64,000 bases of DNA from Candidatus Bathyarchaeota archaeon (lineage in GTDB: Archaea > Thermoproteota > Bathyarchaeia > Bathyarchaeales > Bathycorpusculaceae): NCBI GenBank assembly GCA_963806535.1, contig CAWDYC010000003.1, positions 1 through 64,000 on the forward strand, read 5' to 3'. Position 1 is the first letter of the stretch, and every line of letters begins with the position of its first letter. Positions 16,628 through 59,938 of this stretch are shown here, in pieces. Under the pieces are notes generated by a model. It saw only the letters and a program-made list of their open reading frames with translations. It ran no database searches and was not told the DNA's origin. Position numbers and translations under genes: made by a program.

Positions 16628-17001
16628 TAGTTGCCGACAGCAGTTTCATAGTTGAAGGCCTCCTTAAGAAAAAAGAATTACTTGCAAATGACCAGATTGT
16701 GGCTCCTGAGTTAGTTGCCTACGAAGTCACAAACGCCATTTGGAAGCATGAACATCTTTTGAAGGACTTAGAAAACGGTAAACCATACATATCGATTTTC
16801 TACGGTCTAATAGAAGCTGGGAAAATAAGGATCCTAACTCCAAACGAAGAGTTGATGCAGAAATCATATTTGATTGCAAAAAGGCAAGGAATTACAATAT
16901 ACGACGCAGTTTTCGTTTCGCTGGCAATTAAATTAGGACTGCCCTTAAAAAGCTACGATAGAGTTCAAATTCGAGCTCTAGAATCTGAGAATAGCCGCTG
17001 A
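16624..17001 (+). CDS. vapC: PIN-domain toxin (VapC)
   Basis: Frame extends to an overlapping CTG start: IVADSS...APELVAYEVTNAIWK...ITIYDAVFVSLA...SYD. Confidence 0.85.
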   Translation: MIVADSSFIVEGLLKKKELLANDQIVAPELVAYEVTNAIWKHEHLLKDLENGKPYISIFYGLIEAGKIRILTPNEELMQKSYLIAKRQGITIYDAVFVSLAIKLGLPLKSYDRVQIRALESENSR

Positions 17002-17112: not shown

Positions 17113-17340
17113 TTGCAGAAAACAGTAAAAGTTACCAGAAAAGGACAAACAACTATACCTGCCAGAATCAGAGAAGAACTGGGAATAAAAGAGGGAGACG
17201 ACTTGTCAGTCGAAGCTGTTGACCAAGCAGTGATCTTCAAACGCATACCCAAAATAGAGGATTGTGCAGGAATCTTTGCCGGTCACGCAGACGTGACAGA
17301 AATGAAAAAGGAAATCGACAAGCTTCGAGAGGAATACTAA
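17113..17340 (+). CDS. AbrB/MazE/SpoVT antitoxin
   Basis: VTRKGQTTIPARIREELGIKEGD. Confidence 0.9.
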   Translation: MQKTVKVTRKGQTTIPARIREELGIKEGDDLSVEAVDQAVIFKRIPKIEDCAGIFAGHADVTEMKKEIDKLREEY

Positions 17341-17343
17341 TCG

Positions 17344-17742
17344 TTGAAGCAAGTGCTTGACAGTCGATTCTTTGTGGAATACTACTATTCCCAAGACCCG
17401 ATCATTCGACAGAAAGTCAATCAGAAAATTAAAGAGCTAACCAAAAATAGTAGCGGCATAATACCAACCATTGTTGTTTGTGAAACAATTCAGCTGATCT
17501 GCTCACGAGAGGGCAAGCAAAAAGCAGAAATGATCTACCTATCAATCATTTCAAGTGGAATAAGAATCGAAAGTCTAAGCCCTTCAATTGCGAAAGAAGC
17601 AGGCATACTAAAAAGCGTATACAAACACATTCCAGTCGGCGACTGCATCATCGCCGCCACAGCAATCAGAAACCAAGCGAGAATACTCTCAGACGATTCG
17701 CACTTCGATGCAATAGAAGAAACAAAACGAATATGGCTTTAG
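17344..17742 (+). CDS. vapC: PIN-domain toxin (VapC)
   Basis: VLDS...E...GDCIIAATA...SDDSHF acidic PIN motifs. Confidence 0.9.
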   Translation: MKQVLDSRFFVEYYYSQDPIIRQKVNQKIKELTKNSSGIIPTIVVCETIQLICSREGKQKAEMIYLSIISSGIRIESLSPSIAKEAGILKSVYKHIPVGDCIIAATAIRNQARILSDDSHFDAIEETKRIWL

Positions 17743-18189: not shown

Positions 18190-19531
18190 TTGATTCTTTC
18201 GCCGTTTGTCCACCTGTTCAATATTGATGAATCGACGAAGTGTCTTTTCAATTCTTTAACTCTAAAGAAAGTATACTTAACCAACAAAAAGTACGAAAAG
18301 GTTTTAGCAGATCTAAGTAAAGGCGAGCGCAGTAAGGACGTCAAAGAGTTAATTGAACTAAAATTTGTGGTGCCTCAGGGGTTTGATGAGGAAAAAGTGT
18401 TTGATACTGTTGCAAGCAGCTTGCTTAGAAAAAAACCACAAACCAACCTTGCCTACATTTTGGTGACTGACTTCTGCAATTTCAGATGCGGCTACTGCTT
18501 TATCGAAAACAATCTAAAAGGACCAAGTACCGCGATGTCTAAGGATTTGGCTGACAAAGTCATAAACGTCCTAATCAACGAGGCAAAGCAAGTTCCAGAA
18601 TTCAGGGTCACATTTTATGGGGGAGAGCCGTTTAGCAATAGCGAAATTGTTTTCTACATTATTGAGAAGCTTGAACAGGCATCTAAGAAATTCTTGTTTT
18701 CCTGCGTCACAAATGGAAGCCTAATAACCGAAGACATAGCTAAAAAACTTAAACAACACAACGTTGCCGTAGGATTATCGCTTGACGGATGGGCTAACAT
18801 TGACAAAAACCGTGTTTTCACTGATGGAAAAGAAACCTTTTACTCAGCACTCAAAGCCTTAGCTATTCTAAAAGAAGCAGGCGTAAACACAGGAATATCG
18901 TGCACAATCACAAAACAGAACTATGAGCACGCAGAAGAAATAGTAGAATTTATCCAGAAACTGGGAGTCAGAACCATAGGCTTCAACTTGTTGACCAGAC
19001 TTAAAGAGCCAAGCAAATTTGAGGTGCCTGATCCCAAAACAACTTGCCCATCATCTTTTTGCAGCTTACTTAAAAGCAAAAGAATTGCACATGTTTGAAG
19101 ATCGCATTGATAATCGGCGAGCAAATTATTTTTTCAAAGAAATATTTCATATTTACGATTGCCCCGCGTTTGGTCAACTACTATTTTTTTCGCCAACCGG
19201 AACAGTAGGACCTTGCCACGCGTTCTATCCGTCGGGGAAATATCAAATTCCAATCAAAGAGGATTTGAAAATTCAAGAAGAACCATTGTTTTACAAATGG
19301 CTGGAAATAGGCACTCTAAAAAATAAAGACTGTATGAGGTGTCCTGCGATTGGAATTTGCGGTGGAGGATGCGCTTACGATATCTATGTTAAAACTGGTC
19401 AACTTGGCATAAAAGAAGACTACTTCTGCACTTTTCAAAATGAAATACTAAAGCTCCTAATTTCATACAATTTCCTGCTGGAATCTCAAAATAAACATTG
19501 CAAAAACCAAAAGTTGAAGAATTTGTCCTAA
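18190..19531 (+). CDS. Radical SAM/SPASM peptide maturase-like enzyme (+1 frameshift near 19035-19040, likely a sequencing error)
   Basis: CNFRCGYC, YGGEP, SLDG in 18190-19098. The SPASM Cys array (CPAFG, GPCH, CMRCPAIGICGGGC, C) lies in the overlapping 19019-19531 frame. ~80-aa N-terminal extension. Confidence 0.9.
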
Positions 19532-20143: not shown

Positions 20144-21733
20144 TTGTCTGTTTTTCTTTGCATTCCGCCAGTTTCTTCTTTAGTTCCATATCCTGCAATT
20201 CCATACTTAACAAGCAGCCTGAGAGCAAATAATCAAAAGGTAAGTACCTTTGATCTAAACATAAAAGCTTTTAACCTAACTCTTTTCCATCAGAGAATAG
20301 ATATCAAACCCGGAGAAATTCTAAGTAAAAGTAACAACACGAAAAGGGCAAAATGGAAAAGAGTTCCTAAAGCAGAGATTTATTCGACCATGCGAGAAGG
20401 CCAAGAAATTTTTGAAGAAATAATGTTACAAGAGGCTTATGATCAATTAGGCTATAACATCTCAAACTTAATGTTCAAAGATATTATCAGCGAAGAATCA
20501 AAGCAGGCAACGTTGTCGGATGTTTGGAAAATTTGTAATGATTGGTTTTTAGAAGTTGCCCACGATTCCAAAGAGCAAAATATAGTGGGATTTCATGTAA
20601 TAAGCCATACTGGTTTGATGTGGAGCATACTTCTGGCACGTAAATTAAAGAAAATTCAGCCCAGAATTTTGACAGTTTTGGGCGGTCCAGCATTCCTCTC
20701 AGCGCAAGAAGTTCTGTCTGTCAATTCAGAAATTGACGTAATAGTTCGAGGGGAGGGCGAGGTCACGATTTCTGAGATAGCTAATTCTTATGACGGTAGT
20801 TTGGAATCAATAAAGGGAATCGATGGAATTTCCTACAGAAATGGTAAAAACGGAATTGTTTCCAATGCTGATCGACAGTTGATTAAGTCTCTTGATGCTT
20901 TGCCTTTTCCCGATTACGATGATTTACCATTACATGAATATCCTCAGAATAAGTTTGGAATGCCTATAATGCCAGTTGTTGGCTCTAGAGGCTGTATTGG
21001 AGATTGTGTTTTTTGTGTTGAAAAACGTTTATGGGGCAACACGTATCGGATGCGGTCACCAGAAAACATCGTATCGGAAATCAAGAATATCAAAGAAAAA
21101 TACGGAACTTCCATCATTCGATTCAATGACAGCTCGATTAATTGTAACATCAAATCGCTAGAAAAACTCTGCGATTTATTGATTGAAGAGAATATCGGAA
21201 TGCAGTGGACGAGCAACGCCAGAATTCGTCCTGAAATGAACAACAAACTGCTTAGGAAAATGCGGCAAGCGGGTTGTATGGGCTTGTGGTTTGGCATAGA
21301 ATCTGGGTCCCAGAGAATTCTGCGTAAAATGAAAAAAGGGTATGATTTGGAAACTGCTAAAAACGTGATCCACGATACTGCAAAAAATGGCATTCGTGTT
21401 CAGATATTTATGATAGTAGATTTTCCGGGAGAAACTCTCAGCGATTTTAACAAGTCTGTTGCTTTCTTAGAGCAAAACCACCAATTTATTGATCAAGTCA
21501 GCGTTTCACGTTTTGGGGTTTTGCCTGATTCAGAAATTTCTCATAACCCCCAAGAATATGGAATTGAGCTGATCAAAGGAAAAACAGGGGTTAATTACAG
21601 TTATTTGTATTCGCCTACGCCCGATAGCTACCGATATGAAAATCTCCGTTCGGTTTGGAACCGCTTAAGCATGGAAAAAACAGCAGGCTCAAAAAGGAAT
21701 TATCTTCCAAAAATAATTGTTCCATATTACTAA
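20144..21733 (+). CDS. Cobalamin-binding radical SAM protein (class B methyltransferase-like)
   Basis: B12-binding domain (VLGGP, VIVRGEGE, LPFPDY), SRGCIGDCVFC, GIESGSQRILRKMKKG, FPGET. Confidence 0.92.
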   Translation: MSVFLCIPPVSSLVPYPAIPYLTSSLRANNQKVSTFDLNIKAFNLTLFHQRIDIKPGEILSKSNNTKRAKWKRVPKAEIYSTMREGQEIFEEIMLQEAYDQLGYNISNLMFKDIISEESKQATLSDVWKICNDWFLEVAHDSKEQNIVGFHVISHTGLMWSILLARKLKKIQPRILTVLGGPAFLSAQEVLSVNSEIDVIVRGEGEVTISEIANSYDGSLESIKGIDGISYRNGKNGIVSNADRQLIKSLDALPFPDYDDLPLHEYPQNKFGMPIMPVVGSRGCIGDCVFCVEKRLWGNTYRMRSPENIVSEIKNIKEKYGTSIIRFNDSSINCNIKSLEKLCDLLIEENIGMQWTSNARIRPEMNNKLLRKMRQAGCMGLWFGIESGSQRILRKMKKGYDLETAKNVIHDTAKNGIRVQIFMIVDFPGETLSDFNKSVAFLEQNHQFIDQVSVSRFGVLPDSEISHNPQEYGIELIKGKTGVNYSYLYSPTPDSYRYENLRSVWNRLSMEKTAGSKRNYLPKIIVPYY

Positions 21734-21784
21734 AAGTTTACTTTCAAGAAAACGTCTCCTAGCTAAGTCTTAATGTTAATCACT

Positions 21785-21850
21785 AAACCCATAAATATTA
21801 TCTTGAGAGATCATAAAGAGAGCAGTGATTGTTTTTGTCAAAAAATAAAT
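21785..21850 (+). promoter_or_regulatory. Duplicated upstream/promoter block (ccataaatattatcttgagagatcataaa), partner 22358-22423
   Basis: Same block directly upstream of precursor B and of the methyltransferase; contains an AT-rich TATA-like ATAAATATT. Confidence 0.6.
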
Positions 21851-22230
21851 TTACACCTAACTCTTCCACAAAAAACCTGACCCCAGCACAAAAGAAACGT
21901 TTAGAGAAAACCTTGGCACAAATGCCACCTATTGAAAAACTGGATCCTGCAGTTTATGCAAAGCTACAGTCATCGATACGTGATGCCGTGGCAAAAACTT
22001 TGCCAGAATATCAGAAGTGGGTAAATTCTTCTTTGATAGCAGCCGATGATTGCCCCCCGCCGGCACCTGTGTGTAGTTCTTGTGGCAACGATTGCCCCAC
22101 GCAGCTTTGTAGTTCATGTGGAAACGACTGCCCAACGCCAAATAGAAAACTGGACGATATGGTTGTTAATGCGGTAAACGAGGCTATAACGGGAGCAATT
22201 CGTCAAGCTTTGAAAGGTCAGTTCAAATAA
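21829..22230 (+). CDS. Candidate RiPP precursor B with internal 7-Cys repeat core
   Basis: DDCPPPAPVCSSCGNDCPTQLCSSCGNDCPTP; leader and follower highly similar to precursor A. Confidence 0.75.
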   Translation: MFLSKNKFTPNSSTKNLTPAQKKRLEKTLAQMPPIEKLDPAVYAKLQSSIRDAVAKTLPEYQKWVNSSLIAADDCPPPAPVCSSCGNDCPTQLCSSCGNDCPTPNRKLDDMVVNAVNEAITGAIRQALKGQFK

Positions 22231-22406
22231 GAGCGGTCAGAAACTAACATTCTCAAAAAATAGTTCACAGAATTACGCCACAAAAAGTAGCAGGTGCTAT
22301 AAAAAAATTGTCCTATGATTACACAAATTTATTTTCAAGAGTCTGTATGCCTTCAAAAAACCATAAATATTATCTTGAGAGATCATAAATAGAGCAGCGA
22401 TTATTT

Positions 22407-23511
22407 TTGCCAAAAAATAAACCAACAACCAAAACCCTCTCTAAAAAACCTACAAAAACCAAAAAGCAAAATCAACACCTGAACGCACCTTCGGAAAAAG
22501 ATCCTCATTTTGAAAAGTTGGATCCAGAAATTTATGCAAAACTGCAATCAACTATCCATGAAGTCATAGAAAAAACGTTGCCAGAGTACAAAGAATGGCT
22601 AAACTCTGCATTTGGCGAAAAAATCATAGGCAATGATTGTTCAAATGAATCCTTGCAGAACATCGACAAGATTGTGGTTTCGGCTGTCAACAAAGCAATG
22701 AAAACAGCAATTCCTCAAGCTTTGAAGGAATATGATGAGCAGCAGGGAATTATGGAAAAATGGTTTAAAATGAAATTTTATGATGACGTTTCAGACATAA
22801 GACCTGAAAGCCGAGCTTACTACAAATATTGTGTAGAAAATTTTGTTACACAATTTTTTACCAGAGAAAAAATATCTGGAAAGAAAATCCTCGATTTTGG
22901 ATGTGGACCAGGATATTTTTCCACGATTTTAGCCCAAACGTGGAGCACACATAACTGGAATTGACAGAAGTGCATTTCTGATTTCGAAAGCAAACGAACT
23001 CAAGCAAAGACTAGAACTTGAAAATGTAGAGTTTTTGCAGGGGGATTTTCTTGATTTTGCAAAAAATATGCCCTCTGAAAAGTTTGACTACATTGTCGCG
23101 ATAGATACGATTGTGAGTTTTGACTATTGTAGACAAACGCATAATCATAAGGATTTCATCCAGGCTTTAAGCGAAATTAGAAGAGTTATGAAAGATGAGG
23201 GTAGATTTTTTATTATTGAGGCGCATCCGTTTTTTGGTCAACTTGCGAAAGGAATAACTTTCTCAAAGGAAGGACATTTTCATGGTCGTTTACCTAATTA
23301 TAAAATAGAGTATAAGGCTAAGGATAATCCGCATCATTGGTTTACCCTTGATGAAATGACGAGTGCTCTTAGCGAGAACTGTTTGGCTATTTGCAGGATT
23401 TATGAGCCTGATCCAAGTGTTGAATTGGAAAAAGAAAATCCTCATTTGTACAGGTTTTACTTGAAGTATCCGCATTTGATTGTATATGAAATATGCAAAG
23501 TGAAAATCTAA
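22407..23511 (+). CDS. Class I SAM-dependent methyltransferase fused to a precursor-like leader/follower scaffold (frameshift near 22935)
   Basis: N-terminal EKLDPEIYAKLQSTI...KTLPEYKEWLNS...IDKIVVSAVNKAMKTAIPQALKE. ILDFGCGPG (motif I) continues after a one-base shift as RGAHITGID...LQGDF...FDYIVA...GRFFIIEAHP. Confidence 0.85.
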
Positions 23512-24047: not shown

Positions 24048-26249
24048 ATGGTTCAGAAAGAAGTCTTGAAGAAAACTAGAACTTATGGTTTAATTGCATT
24101 ACTTTTAGCTATAGTCCTTGTGGCGATGATTTATGCTTATGGAAATACAGGGATTTCTCCTGGAGCACCTCAGCAACCAGGGTCGTCTCAGGGAACATTG
24201 GCTCAGGGGAATTTGGGAACACAAACGGTTGGAACACAAACATCTTTGCAAACTTTTACTTCAATTAATGAACTCAAAAACTTCCTAAACCAAAGCAGCG
24301 GCTCAAACCCGTATAGGTATGCCTTCAACAACGCAGGCACTTATAACGAGTTAGCTCCCATGCCGGTACCCTCAACAGCACCTTCGGCGGCATCTTTAAC
24401 TGCGCAAAGCGCTTCAAATGACTATTCAACAACTAATATCCAAGTTGCCGGCGTCGATGAAGCAGACAAAGTGAAAACCGATGGGCAATACATCTACGTC
24501 ATAGGCAACAATAGCCAAGCTGTTTACATTTTAGATGCCAGCTCTCAAAACCCACAAAACGCCAAAGTTCTTAGCAAAATATTATTTGATAACGGTTATC
24601 CGCAGGGAATTTATCTTAGCGCAGACGGCAACAAACTCGCTGTTCTAGGAAGCAACAATGTACCTTATCAGGTTTATGGGAGGGTTCTTGGGTTATATCC
24701 GGCCAACATGATGTTTCCCAGTTGGACTGCCAGCACAAACTTCGTCTACGTTTATGATGTCTCAAACAAAGCTAATCCGGTACTTTCACGGAACTTCACG
24801 ATGAGCGGCAGCTACGTTAACAGTCGAATGATTGGTAATTATGTTTATGACATAATCTCAGAAAACTCTTATCTTTTAAATGGAACCGTTTTGCTTCCCA
24901 CAGTTTTTTCTGGTCAGCAACCCTCCGCCGTATCGCCCACAAGCATCTACTATGTTAACAATTCGGACGCAAGCTACATGTACACAACCATAGTTGCCTT
25001 AAACATCGAAAACAGTCAGGAACAAGGAGTAAGCACAACTGTCCTTATGGGCAACGCAGGAACAATATACGTTTCCCAAAGCAACATCTACCTAACTGAC
25101 CAAGTAACCACCTATCAACCCGTAAAAACACCTTTAGCCACGCCGTCTCAAACTGGCACAACTATTATGCCAATGCCAATCATTCCCGTGCAGCTTTATT
25201 GGCAGGGAACCGCCATTTACCGCATACAAATCTCAGGGCCATCTCTTACGCTTGCCGCTTCAGGAAACGTTACAGGCACCGTTATGAGCCAGTACTCGAT
25301 GGATGAATACAACGGGTACTTCCGCATAGCCACTAGCTCCTCCGATTACTCCCAAACCAGCTATTCGTCTACGCAACAGAATAACCTGTACATATTAGAC
25401 TCGAATCTGAAGGTCGTGGGAAAAATCGAAAACTTAGCCAGCGGAGAAGAACTGCATTCCGCCCGATTTATAGCTGACCGATGCTACTTAGTCACCTTCA
25501 ACCAAATTGACCCCCTGTTTGTCCTCGACTTAACTCAACCCACAAACCCCATGGTCCTTGGCAACCTAACAATACCTGGATACTCAGATTTCCTGCAGCC
25601 CTACGACGCAACACATCTGATCGGAATCGGTCAAGATGTAAATGCCAGCATTGATGCAAACAAAGTGGAAACTCCAGGTGACGTATATTACACCGCTGTT
25701 TTAGGCTTGAAAGTATCCCTATTCGACGTTAGTAACGTTGCAAACCCGAAGGAAACTTCAAGCATCGTCATAGGCGACAGCGGAACAACTTCAGAAGCCC
25801 TCACTGACCCTAAAGCCATCCTCTTCGATGCATCCAAAAACCTCCTAGTCTTGCCAATTGAACTGTACCTATCAACCAACAGCACGGCAACAACATCGCC
25901 GGGCGCCACAGGTACCGCAGGTAATGGAATAGCCGTTCCAGCCCCCGCGCCAATGATCCCAACAAACACTTATTATCCCCAGTTCGCATGGCAGGGAATA
26001 TACGTATTCAACGTTGACCTCACAAACGGCATCACAATTAAAGGCAACATAACACAGTTAGACAATGCATCAACATATCTCGCCAACCCGTCCCTTGCAA
26101 CAACAGGGTCATACCCGTGGGGAGAAAGCCAATACTTCATTGACCGCTCACTGTACATCGGCAATGTCCTATACACTGTCAGCCAAAGCAGAGTGCAACT
26201 AAACAGTCTAGGCAACTTCACCCTACTAGCTAAAGTAGATCTAAATTAA
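24048..26249 (+). CDS. Membrane-anchored secreted beta-propeller domain protein (Beta_propel family)
   Basis: N-terminal TM helix; YSTTNIQVAGVDEADKVKTDG, SMDEYNGYFRIAT, IDPLFVLDL, IPGYSDFLQP. Confidence 0.9.
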   Translation: MVQKEVLKKTRTYGLIALLLAIVLVAMIYAYGNTGISPGAPQQPGSSQGTLAQGNLGTQTVGTQTSLQTFTSINELKNFLNQSSGSNPYRYAFNNAGTYNELAPMPVPSTAPSAASLTAQSASNDYSTTNIQVAGVDEADKVKTDGQYIYVIGNNSQAVYILDASSQNPQNAKVLSKILFDNGYPQGIYLSADGNKLAVLGSNNVPYQVYGRVLGLYPANMMFPSWTASTNFVYVYDVSNKANPVLSRNFTMSGSYVNSRMIGNYVYDIISENSYLLNGTVLLPTVFSGQQPSAVSPTSIYYVNNSDASYMYTTIVALNIENSQEQGVSTTVLMGNAGTIYVSQSNIYLTDQVTTYQPVKTPLATPSQTGTTIMPMPIIPVQLYWQGTAIYRIQISGPSLTLAASGNVTGTVMSQYSMDEYNGYFRIATSSSDYSQTSYSSTQQNNLYILDSNLKVVGKIENLASGEELHSARFIADRCYLVTFNQIDPLFVLDLTQPTNPMVLGNLTIPGYSDFLQPYDATHLIGIGQDVNASIDANKVETPGDVYYTAVLGLKVSLFDVSNVANPKETSSIVIGDSGTTSEALTDPKAILFDASKNLLVLPIELYLSTNSTATTSPGATGTAGNGIAVPAPAPMIPTNTYYPQFAWQGIYVFNVDLTNGITIKGNITQLDNASTYLANPSLATTGSYPWGESQYFIDRSLYIGNVLYTVSQSRVQLNSLGNFTLLAKVDLN

Positions 26250-34441: not shown

Positions 34442-34820
34442 TTAACCTCTTGACCCTGTTTTCAATGTCATCTCTGATTTCTCGGACTTTTTCTATTGGC
34501 TTTCCTTTCGGATCTTCAAGTTTCCAATCGATTGTTGGTTTAAAGAAGGGTCCAGGGCATATTCCTTGATCGTTGCAGCCCATTGTGACAATTAGGTCTG
34601 AATCCTGAGCCATCTGGAAAGTAAGCAATTTCGGCTTATTTGCAGAAATATCAATGCCTTTTTCTTTCATGACTTCCACAACCACAGGGTTAACTGTTTC
34701 CGCAGGCTTGTTGCCAGCACTAAAAATAACAAACTTATCTTTTCCGTACTTGTTGGCGAAAGCCTCTGCCATTTGGCTTCTGCCCGCATTCTCTACACAG
34801 ACAAACAGTATTTTTTTCAT
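34425..34820 (-). CDS. arsC: Arsenate reductase, LMW-PTP type
   Basis: [20 protein letters not shown]. Confidence 0.92.
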
Positions 34821-35903
34821 GCTTCATCCTCCTTATCTTTATAGTATTTCTTTCTTATCCAGAGGGCCACATTCACTAAACTTATCATGACTGGTACTTC
34901 TATTAATGGTCCTATAACTGCTGCGAAGGCTTCCTGTGAAGCTAAACCGAAAACCGCGACGGCTACGGCTATGGCTAATTCAAAGTTATTGCTGGCTGCG
35001 GTAAAAGAGAGCGAGGTTGTTCTTTTGTAACCCAGTTTAGAATAGTACCCTATGGCGAATGCCACCGAGAACATTATTATGAAGTAGACTAAAAGCGGAA
35101 TGGCAACTCTGACAACATCCAACGGCAAACTTACAATGTACTGTCCTTTGAGCGAAAACATAACAACAATAGTGAATAGCAATGCTATGAGTGACACGTG
35201 GCTTAGTTTATGCATTAGTTTGTGTTCGTACCATTCCTTGCCTTTGGTTTTTAGGAAGTAGTATCTGGTTATGATTCCGGCGAAGAATGGGATGCCTAAG
35301 TAAATCGCCACTGATTGTGCAACTTGTATTATGGAAATGTTTACGATTTGTCCTGAGCCTGAAATCCAACGAGCTGGCTATGGTTATGTAAAAGTATGCA
35401 AGAACCGAGTACATTACTATCTGAAAGATGGAGTTAACTGCAACTAGTATGGCTGTCCATTCGTTGTCGCCTTCTGCAAGGTTATTCCATACGATAACCA
35501 TAGCGATACATCGTGCTATGCCGATGAGTATTATGCCGTTTCTGAGGTCAGGATAGGCACCAAGGAATACCCAAGCTAAAACAAACATCAACAAAGGTCC
35601 AATTACCCAGTTAAGAGTAAGCGACTCCGTGAGCATTGTCTTTGAACCTTTGGAAGTTACCACTTTTTTTAGATCTTCGTATCGTACTCTTGCAAGCGGA
35701 GGATACATCATCAAAATCAAGCCTACAGCTATAGGAATTGAGGTGGTTCCAATACTCAAAGAGCCTATGTCACTGGATATCTTAGGATAGATGTAGCCTA
35801 TTGCAACCCCAATGGCCATTGCTAAGAATATCCAGACTGTGAGAAACTTGCTCAACAACGAGAGATGAGGCTTAGGCTTATCAGGTTTAGAAGGGATACA
35901 CAT
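34817..35903 (-). CDS. acr3: ACR3 arsenite efflux transporter (frameshift near 35370)
   Basis: [40 protein letters not shown] over two frames. Confidence 0.92.
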
Positions 35904-58614: not shown

Positions 58615-59938
58615 TTATTTTTTGGAGAAGGTTCTTGCATTTCTTATTCGAACTTGTCCATGTTTGTATCTCAAAAGAGCGGCAAAGCCTCCTAAAGCTG
58701 TAAGCTTCGCTTTTTCCTCTGATTCTGGAGATATTACCTCAACTCTTGCATTTGTTTGTGAAGCACCATCTTCCAAGACATCTATTATATCCTTCTCGTC
58801 AACTTCATATTCAACTGCGCCGCACCTTTCACAGGGGATCGATATCATTTCCTGGATTGTTTGAACCTTTTGCCCCTTTATCACTATCTTCGTCTTGGAT
58901 AAAGAACATTTTTTGCACATTGCAACAATTTCAATCATATCAGTGGTATCTGTAACTAATGCAATTTCCACTTCACCGGTCTTAAGCGATTTCAAAACTG
59001 AATCTAATCCGTAGAGTAGCCAAACCATTTTGCTTGGCGATATCTGATAGAAGGCGCTGAACAACACTTTTCTGTTCTGGCAAACACATATTCTTCAGTG
59101 AATCAAATGATTTGTCAAGCACCTCTCTTACTCCTTCTCTGCCAGCGGATTGTGTATCCACTTTGCCCAGAAACACATTTTTTAGCTCATAGTGAAGAAA
59201 ATCGCCGTTTAAAAAATCCTCTTTTGTTGTACCTGGTCCTCCAACGAGCAACACGTTAACTTTATGGTTCTCGAGAAATGCTTTGGCTGCATGTTCTGCA
59301 ACTCTATGGAAATAGTGTGTGAGTTCCGTGTCGCGTTCTCTTTCATATCTTCTTTGGCTTGACCCACCTTTTCCAGATTTTCCATGAATTCCAGAGGTGA
59401 TATTTTCTATGAATTCGAATCGTTCACCATTAAGCAGACCAAAGCTAGCCTCCTTTGAATCTAAAGCGATTAGACCCACAACTTTTAGGTCTCTAAGCAT
59501 TTCTCTTAGTGGCTCTAACTGGAAATAGTTGTTAACCTCCAACAAAAATGAAGTAATCGGTTCTGGTGGAACTACTTCTTCGACATTTAAAGATGCGTTT
59601 TCCAATTCGTTCGCAACGAAAGTTCCGGCAAATATCGCAATTCCATTCTCTGGAATTTCCCTCAGCAACCTTAAACGCTGAATCACATTCCTGATTGCGT
59701 CTTGATGATGGTCCACACTTTTGGACCTCGTGGCAACAGAATCAGATTCCGCTTTAAGAATTGCGATTACCTCATCTATGGATTTTTCCCGAGGTACGTA
59801 TAGCGAGATAAATTCAATGCCGAGTCCCTCCCTTTCTGATAGCCATGCTATGAGCTTCTTCAGCTTATGCTGTTTCACAGAATTAGTTGTTGCTATTTGG
59901 CACCCGTGAAAATGGGCCGCTGCTTTTTCAGTTACCAA
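58615..59938 (-). CDS. aRF1/eRF1-family paralogue with GGS in place of GGQ (frameshift near 59010)
   Basis: ISLYVP, GKSGKGGSSQRRYERER, VGGPGTTKEDF, YGLDSV, Zn-ribbon CKKC/CERC, GGFAALLRY. Confidence 0.85.

Follow-up and report, generated by a model that had tools for sequence, protein, structure and literature searches.

Background

Tailoring enzymes of ribosomal natural products are known to find their substrates through RRE domains, through direct binding of a leader, or through fusion of substrate and enzyme. In borosins (OphMA and the split borosins), whose methyltransferases have a distinct fold, the core forms the C-terminal tail of the enzyme, and backbone N-methylation takes place on this tail or on that of the dimer partner, and in laboratory constructs a leader fused to lanthipeptide or microviridin enzymes lets the enzyme act on leaderless cores. 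Here we describe a methyltransferase encoded in a 64,000-nucleotide stretch of the genome of Candidatus Bathyarchaeota archaeon (assembly GCA_963806535.1, contig CAWDYC010000003.1, positions 1 to 64,000; hereafter the window), whose N-terminal part (the N-domain) is a copy of the Cys-repeat precursor proteins encoded beside it, without their Cys core.

The nearest described system is the Crp cluster of Methanococcus voltae, in which the radical S-adenosylmethionine (SAM)/SPASM enzyme CrpC puts thioethers into the Cys-repeat protein CrpA at C-X-X-Q/D motifs (PMC13692751). A further protein, CrpB, shares the N-terminal 47 residues of the substrate and its co-expression raised modification, and the authors suggest that domain-domain contacts engage the substrate, beyond RRE-leader binding (PMC13692751).

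A precursor-like domain without a Cys core at the methyltransferase N-terminus

The cluster comprises five genes on the + strand at 18.2-23.5 kb of the window, which encode in order a radical SAM enzyme, precursor A, a B12-binding radical SAM enzyme, precursor B and the methyltransferase (Table 1). Residues 1-112 of the methyltransferase (open reading frame (ORF) 22407..22964) match precursor A at a BLASTP E value of 2e-27, with 57 identities over 136 columns, and the 33-residue gap in this alignment falls exactly at the Cys repeats of the precursor. The original prediction, made by a model from the letters of the window and a list of their ORFs, had quoted two alignments between methyltransferase and precursors, both of which are present in the sequence as written, and had placed their beginning at about residue 35; the homology is real, but it starts at the Lys-rich N-terminus and continues upstream of the gene. 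Indeed, the upstream homology takes in the start context (GATTGTTTTTG) and reaches an AT-rich box some 45 nt before the start; three further loci (L015, L016, L019) have the same conserved region ahead of their methyltransferase genes, where it may serve as a promoter or ribosome-binding site. Since the homology reaches into these upstream signals, the source of the N-domain was a whole precursor gene, signals included. Together with the gap at the repeats, these alignments show the N-domain to be a paralogue of the precursors that lacks their core.

The most conserved part of this domain is helix 1, whose motif (EKLDPxxYAKLQSTI...LPEY..W.NS) recurs in every precursor, even in those of a cluster that lacks a methyltransferase. 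The loop that stands in place of the repeats had been described as reduced to a single-Cys segment (IGNDCSNES), which is so in the window, but that residue (Cys78) is kept in only 12 of the 33 orthologues compared; in one methyltransferase subclade the loop holds a vestigial half repeat, CSNNCPTP. We detected no Pfam domain in the protein except methyltransferase families, and no PqqD/RRE match to the N-domain at E values up to 0.1. An identity as an RRE (PqqD-like) domain was rejected on the lack of a profile match and on the prediction of two long helices rather than a winged helix.

The remainder of the protein is a class I (Rossmann-fold) SAM-dependent methyltransferase by both marks of that class. 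The 3' piece matches Pfam Methyltransf_31 (PF13847; 4.4e-18, 65.8 bits against a cut-off of 27) and PF08241 (40.6 bits against 21.2), while motif I, DFGCGPG, lies in the 5' piece and is invariant across 44 sequences. The AlphaFold2 (AF2) model has a Rossmann core of strands at residues 160-165, 181-186, 207-211 and 226-232 with helices between them, at a predicted local distance difference test score (pLDDT) of about 80-96, and Foldseek matches it to TleD, ToxA and UbiG (E about 1e-11). Searches by fold and against solved structures relate the catalytic domain to generic class I enzymes only, and no peptide-binding domain of the enzyme's own can be recognised. As had been predicted, the scaffold (the frame shared with the precursors) runs through motif I in a single open frame, so that the fusion is independent of the frameshift further downstream and the break has no bearing on the fusion architecture.

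Table 1 Features of the gene cluster and subdivision of the methyltransferase gene (positions in the window)
Feature	Position	Strand	Description
Radical SAM/SPASM maturase gene	18190..19531	+	Two overlapping ORFs, 18190..19098 and 19019..19531; Pfam Radical_SAM 4.6e-23
Precursor A, 140 aa	19599..20021	+	Lys-rich tail, short helix, helix 1, two CPxELCSxCxNQ repeats, helix 2
B12-binding radical SAM enzyme	20144..21733	+	Pfam Radical_SAM 6.8e-20, B12-binding 1.7e-7
Precursor B, 133 aa	21829..22230	+	79-80% identical to precursor A
Methyltransferase upstream region	22330..22406	+	TATA-like AT-rich box ATAAATATTA and GATT(A/G)TTTTTG at start; from DNA alignments with precursor genes
Methyltransferase residues 1-34	22407..22508	+	Lys-rich tail (xKNK...), predicted disordered (pLDDT below 50), common to precursors
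Methyltransferase residues 35-70, helix 1	22509..22616	+	FEKLDPEIYAKLQSTIHEVIEKTLPEYKEWLNSAFG; most conserved part of the N-domain
Methyltransferase residues 71-85, loop replacing Cys repeats	22617..22661	+	EKIIGNDCSNESLQN; single Cys, Cys78
Methyltransferase residues 86-112, helix 2	22662..22742	+	Homologous to the precursors' C-terminal helix; relaxed in the enzyme
Class I SAM-dependent methyltransferase domain	22743..23511	+	Two frames in the assembly; 3' piece is ORF 23035..23511
+1 frame break	22933..22938 (cccaaa)	+	One base more than orthologues

Conservation, descent and selection

Database searches used the read-through protein as query (P0001, in which GCCC is read as A, and which is one residue off the likely original, K for Q) and gave 91 matches, 42 of which are full-length fusions of 358-402 aa with at least 98% coverage and 62-91% identity. 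The possibility, raised with the original prediction, that the fusion is unique to this genome is set aside by these 42 full-length orthologue clusters. A further group of the matches consists of fragments of the same orthologues, and 31 (P0058-P0088) share the catalytic domain only. The fusion is carried by six GTDB species representatives, all of them metagenome-assembled genomes (MAGs) of Candidatus Bathyarchaeota, and by three short metagenome contigs; its ORF is intact in four of the six genome loci (L015, L016, L017, L019) and in all three contigs (L104, L105, L107), and has frame breaks in L018 and L020.

A separate precursor with an intact core adjoins the fusion in 10/10 informative loci (L116 and L119, which both start inside the methyltransferase gene, were left out of the locus counts). 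The radical SAM/SPASM gene is present in nine of these ten, the exception (L105) being a 3-kb contig, and the B12 enzyme lies between precursor and methyltransferase in seven. On the 4920-nt contig L104 the order is precursor, methyltransferase fusion and radical SAM/SPASM gene, with the B12 enzyme absent from the contig, and in L020 too there is no B12 gene between precursor and methyltransferase.

A maximum-likelihood tree of 61 scaffold sequences has a branch with support of 100/98 between the 33 methyltransferase N-domains and the 28 precursors. Such a topology is compatible with a single old fusion and vertical descent thereafter, and not with repeated gene conversion.

Ratios of non-synonymous to synonymous substitution rates (dN/dS) show purifying selection on the N-domain, for which they range from 0.28 to 0.54 and stay below 1 in all 10 pairs among five genomes. 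The values differ along the protein. For helix 1, four of the six pairs that the four closer genomes form gave 0-0.21 and the remaining two 0.46 and 0.17, and comparisons with L017 gave 0.28-0.52. Helix 2 stood at 0.24-0.64 apart from a single pair at 1.83, measured over 27 codons; the tail gave 0.37-0.82 and the catalytic domain 0.10-0.19. In comparisons that include the window the catalytic domain stands at 0.15-0.18, and its constraint is not relaxed. Similarly, helix 1 has a mean majority fraction of 0.88 over 33 orthologues, as high as residues 113-125 at the start of the catalytic domain, and loop, tail and helix 2 have 0.71, 0.69 and 0.63, respectively. Given that helix 2 of the precursors (AIRQAL..Q.K) is nearly invariant, the enzyme has, unlike the precursors, shed much of the constraint on this helix, whereas helix 1 is still constrained.

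The precursors and the scaffold family

Precursors A and B belong to a family of 132 clusters without a Pfam domain, whose members measure 130-180 aa and consist of helices on both the N- and C-terminal sides of a loop. Each carries in this loop 12-residue repeats of the CPxxLCSSCGND type, in the forms CPxELCSxCxNQ and CPTPLCSSCGND and in 2 to 4 or more copies, in which Cys recurs with Asp, Glu, Asn or Gln at short spacing (the repeats read CGND, CSNQ or CPTE). For the precursors neither NCBIfam nor Pfam yielded a meaningful match; precursor A had no usable match in the protein atlas, and its model had no Foldseek match at E <= 0.001. Matches to LppA and FYVE_2 fell below cut-offs and were taken as compositional. 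Contigs bearing this Cys-repeat family come from soil, peat and permafrost metagenomes.

Among the loci compared, only the window has a precursor B at its position. The sequence upstream of it (21729-21848) matches the region that precedes the methyltransferase in other genomes (L015:7901-8020, L019:7901-8020), and the window's own methyltransferase retains a shorter copy of this methyltransferase-type upstream region. Precursor B thus looks like a local duplication that carried the methyltransferase-type upstream region along.

A search with precursor A found three scaffold copies in the 2.95-Mb genome, namely the two precursors and the 5' part of the methyltransferase ORF, and a profile search of the scaffold against 1.84 billion representative proteins yielded 21 matches, among which the methyltransferase family is the sole genuine fusion. 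The scaffold family is small. Three further candidate fusions (P0229, P0230, P0231) were dismissed because on inspection they match through the repeats only, and the match of the 1,265-aa protein P0227 is confined to profile positions 83-125.

Divergent precursors (G077, P0214, P0216) have a helix 1 nearer to the enzyme's version (WLNSAF/EYG...), yet fall on the precursor side of the tree. The first of these comes from a genome of the same family, in which a radical SAM gene and a precursor occur together with the helix-1 motif kept, and in which we found no methyltransferase gene in the 3.2 kb around the cluster and no match to the methyltransferase part of the query elsewhere in the genome. 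Since the motif is retained in this cluster, it must have a reader besides the methyltransferase. Beyond these carriers the cluster is hard to find: a sample of 400 other genomes from the phylum, 10 of them of the same genus, contained no match.

The modifying enzymes and flanking genes

The radical SAM/SPASM gene is split in the window by one extra base near 19032-19040, and in L015 both halves stand in one frame. An intact homologue of 437 aa in G077 aligns end to end with SPASM maturase models (residues 27-400 with FibroRumin, residues 67-383 with PapB). This type of maturase reaches no named NCBIfam family at its curated cut-off, all matches being far below: the best score of the homologue is 174.5 bits against FibroRumin (cut-off 400), followed by 144.9 bits against PapB NF047865 (cut-off 340) and 96.8 bits against TIGR04463 (cut-off 525). 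Pfam detected no RRE/PqqD-type domain in the maturase N-terminus. The B12-binding enzyme scores 158 bits against TIGR03975, 'RiPP maturation radical SAM C-methyltransferase', which is below the cut-off of 282, and is probably of the C-methyltransferase type.

With a radical SAM/SPASM gene beside a substrate gene, and repeats in which Cys is followed by an acceptor residue, the cluster has the marks of ranthipeptide-like or Crp-like systems, and it appears to mature Cys-repeat proteins.

The cluster is directly preceded by two ORFs on the + strand, one for a MazE/AbrB-type antitoxin (17113..17340) and one for a PIN-domain protein (17344..17742), and further upstream is an ORF (16699..17001, +) that is PIN-like by eye. 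Downstream, 24048-26249 (+) encodes a 733-aa protein with a Pfam Beta_propel match (E 5e-146) and a hydrophobic stretch near its N-terminus, which is not beside the methyltransferase in other loci, as far as tblastn queries could show.

Relatives of the methyltransferase without the scaffold

The 31 proteins that share only the catalytic domain (P0058-P0088; loci L096, L098-L103) are 47-62% identical to it there and share the segment WFxMKFYDDxSDIRPE. Their N-terminal extensions, of 25-70 residues, are unrelated to the scaffold and, judged by eye without alignment, unlike their own neighbouring precursors. In six loci (L096, L098-L100, L102, L103) the methyltransferase gene lies directly 3' of a distant radical SAM/SPASM gene (30-35% identical), and in L101 radical SAM-like matches occur downstream of it instead. 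The G+C content of these loci spans 0.34-0.65, and several lineages are therefore involved. P0065 (412 aa) combines a SPASM C-terminal part with a methyltransferase, as a true fusion or as a gene call across an overlapping stop and start.

Cys-rich repeat proteins are encoded upstream of these methyltransferases as well (L096:3760-4344, L103:3843-4373, L102:3-362, L099:3-281), with repeats such as CAPPVDCA, CDCYCPCSD and GGDC, and share a C-terminal helix motif, RFGDI..IL (KFGDI in L103). The methyltransferase family thus, in several lineages, regularly accompanies the radical SAM/SPASM maturation of Cys-repeat proteins, while the scaffold copy is confined to one clade, whose six genome members are Bathyarchaeota. 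All repeat types, those of the window included, contain Asp-Cys, and from this shared feature of otherwise unrelated repeats one might guess that the methyltransferase acts on Asp carboxylates or on free Cys.

Frame breaks in the assembly

The original prediction had suspected an extra C at about 22935. There is indeed one surplus base, but it is best described as an extra A in the run 22936-22938: the 91%-identical orthologue reads ILAQRGAHVTGID (ILAQRGAH) across the break. A few orthologues have LAKRGA, which is compatible with an extra C instead of an extra A. The base at 22936 is left out in eight related contigs from 4/4 metagenome runs, and that at 19032 in four contigs from three runs; none of the runs contains the window strain itself, the best having 0.28 of the sampled words, the contig comparison is one with relatives of that strain, and parts of 21964-22331 were uncovered in some runs. 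Because the orthologues and the eight related contigs are without the extra base, the break in the methyltransferase gene probably reflects either an error of assembly or a lesion of very recent date. Sister MAG loci are broken at other places, in pieces 94-100% identical (the B12 gene of L015 lies in four pieces), and the differing positions of these breaks look like assembly error.

Elsewhere in the window, an SBF-family transporter gene (34817-35903, -) is split into overlapping ORFs, as is an eRF1-family gene (58615-59938, -), whose break looks like a single extra base outside a homopolymer run. We considered the latter as proof of assembly error in an essential gene and discarded the argument as weak, because the genome has three eRF1-family loci and the split copy may be a dispensable paralogue.

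Possible roles of the N-domain

AF2 predicts precursor A as a short helix followed by helices at residues 49-78 and 113-138 (pLDDT about 85-91), with a disordered Cys core (residues 81-111, pLDDT below 50), and predicts the same two helices in the methyltransferase N-domain. When methyltransferase residues 30-125 and precursor A residues 25-140 were modelled together, both as alignments, the interface score (ipSAE) was 0.41 (runs 0.37, 0.41 and 0.42), against 0.00, 0.00 and 0.01 for three controls; the runs agreed in at least 80% of contacts, with a partner pLDDT of about 60. The model lends weak support to direct binding of the precursor by the N-domain.

The explanation that we favour, and to which we give a little better than an even chance, is that the N-domain is a docking module that mimics the address helix of the precursors. 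The old copy of a whole precursor gene, having lost its Cys repeats and become fused in frame to the enzyme, would under this explanation act as a leader mimic, helix 1 of which would bring the methyltransferase into the assembly that handles the precursors. It may do so by pairing of the N-domain with the precursor's own hairpin, or by occupation of a site that otherwise reads helix 1 of the precursor, for example on the radical SAM maturase. By either route the same address label would sort enzyme and substrate into one assembly, and we put forward such recognition by self-likeness tentatively, as somewhat short of an even chance.

Several points weigh against a docking role. The N-domain itself is modelled at low confidence (pLDDT 50-69), and in the calibration, at scores of at most 0.60, only 7 of the 80 solved complexes reached the mark, as did both of the passing mismatches, so that a score such as the one obtained would be more often wrong than right unless the prior is good. 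Helix 2 is relaxed in the enzyme, contrary to the prediction of a symmetric four-helix bundle, and related methyltransferases in other lineages function without the scaffold. Moreover, the scaffold is not a general-purpose docking module, because it is fused to no enzyme besides this methyltransferase, and the cluster is rare and patchy in the phylum. The strong constraint on helix 1 only would fit a recognition helix read by a partner at least as well as it fits a two-helix bundle interface.

The original prediction had the enzyme recruit its substrate by co-oligomerising with the precursors through a homotypic module. In its strict form this is a narrower version of our favoured explanation, in which enzyme and precursor would build a mixed four-helix bundle that holds the precursor's Cys loop near the active site, and we regard it as rather doubtful: the complex score, for all that it exceeds those of the controls (0.41 against at most 0.01), is weak support, and helix 2, highly conserved in the precursors, is poorly conserved in an enzyme where only helix 1 is strongly constrained, although the confidently predicted frame of two long helices in the precursor would suit such a bundle and the upstream signals common to methyltransferase and precursor genes would suit matched expression. 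We consider it unlikely, and less probable than the bundle, that helix 1 of the methyltransferase docks instead on the helix-1 reader site of the radical SAM/SPASM (or B12) maturase, so that the enzyme would be carried along by the maturase and act upon the loop during processing. Here the strong constraint on helix 1 alone would be expected, as would the motif kept in the cluster of radical SAM enzyme and precursor only, where the reader must be other than the methyltransferase; the methyltransferase gene also directly follows the radical SAM/SPASM gene in relatives that have the methyltransferase only (L096, L098-L100, L102, L103), its start overlaps the radical SAM stop in L096 (6001, 6004), as is common for partners that form complexes, and P0065 has a SPASM C-terminus and the methyltransferase in one call. 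Against these observations stand the lack of a Pfam-detectable RRE/PqqD-type domain in the maturase N-terminus and the competition with the substrate that a mimic in the reader site would cause. Between the two routes, then, the relaxed helix 2 and the motif kept without a methyltransferase favour docking on the maturase, and the weak complex score favours pairing with the precursor.

Two explanations would dispense with docking altogether. The original prediction had allowed for a cis fusion of the borosin kind, in which the N-domain would be methylated by its own enzyme, as a real product or as a self-regulatory switch, and the domain does retain the tail, both helices and, in one subclade, the vestigial half repeat, with the further possibility that the methylation site lies in the frame of the precursors. 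We judge this highly unlikely, and do not uphold it, given that the repeats are lost, the loop Cys is variable (12/33 orthologues), free precursors with intact cores occur in 10/10 loci, and the fold is class I and not of the borosin type. Least probable in our estimation is a functionless relic, a tolerated by-product of duplication in a gene, and perhaps a cluster, that is decaying in the window genome. The two frame breaks in the cluster, the two further split genes in the window and the patchy distribution of the cluster in the phylum would agree with decay, but the fusion persists among orthologues of 62-91% identity, with next to no variation in helix 1, every one of the 10 pairs gives the N-domain a dN/dS below 1, the window's catalytic domain stands at 0.15-0.18, relatives are without both extra bases, and the sister loci are broken elsewhere, in what looks like assembly error.

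Comparison with known systems

If the docking explanation is correct, the N-domain would represent a natural 'leader in cis' principle, distinct both from RRE recognition and from borosin-type fusion, and would add a further answer to the question of how tailoring enzymes find their substrates, which is central to the study of ribosomal natural products. It would also suggest a design rule, whereby the precursor frame attached to any enzyme recruits it. Independently of this, the finding marks out an uncharacterised family of Cys-repeat proteins with three modifying enzymes. We found neither a natural leader-like domain on a tailoring enzyme nor a paper on this family in open-access PubMed Central (PMC) and bioRxiv full text, and within that literature the architecture of the enzyme was not found described.

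The Crp system resembles the present cluster in being archaeal and in combining a radical SAM/SPASM enzyme, a Cys-repeat protein and a second protein that shares the N-terminal part of the substrate. However, going by the excerpted text of its report, the protein that bears the shared part is non-enzymatic there (CrpB) and a methyltransferase fusion here; the repeats of CrpA are C-terminal, whereas here they lie in a loop between two conserved helices; and the cluster has three genes, with no methyltransferase described in those excerpts, whereas here there are two extra enzymes. CrpC, moreover, belongs to TIGR04463, against which the present type of maturase scores 96.8 bits for a cut-off of 525. 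Ranthipeptide and sactipeptide systems (PapB, CteB) share with the cluster a radical SAM/SPASM enzyme and Cys-rich repeats with Asp, Glu, Asn or Gln at short spacing, and differ in that the maturase here, known from its sequence, scores far below the cut-offs and that the substrates are proteins of 130-180 aa with N- and C-terminal helices.

Borosins likewise join a methyltransferase and substrate-derived sequence in one polypeptide, but here the fused part is N-terminal, its core is lost so that no modified core lies within the enzyme, free precursors exist, and only class I families match the catalytic domain. Closest in concept are the engineered leader-in-cis enzymes, in which the leader stands on the enzyme itself; the present fusion differs from them in being natural and conserved, and in having substrates that keep leader-like helices of their own.

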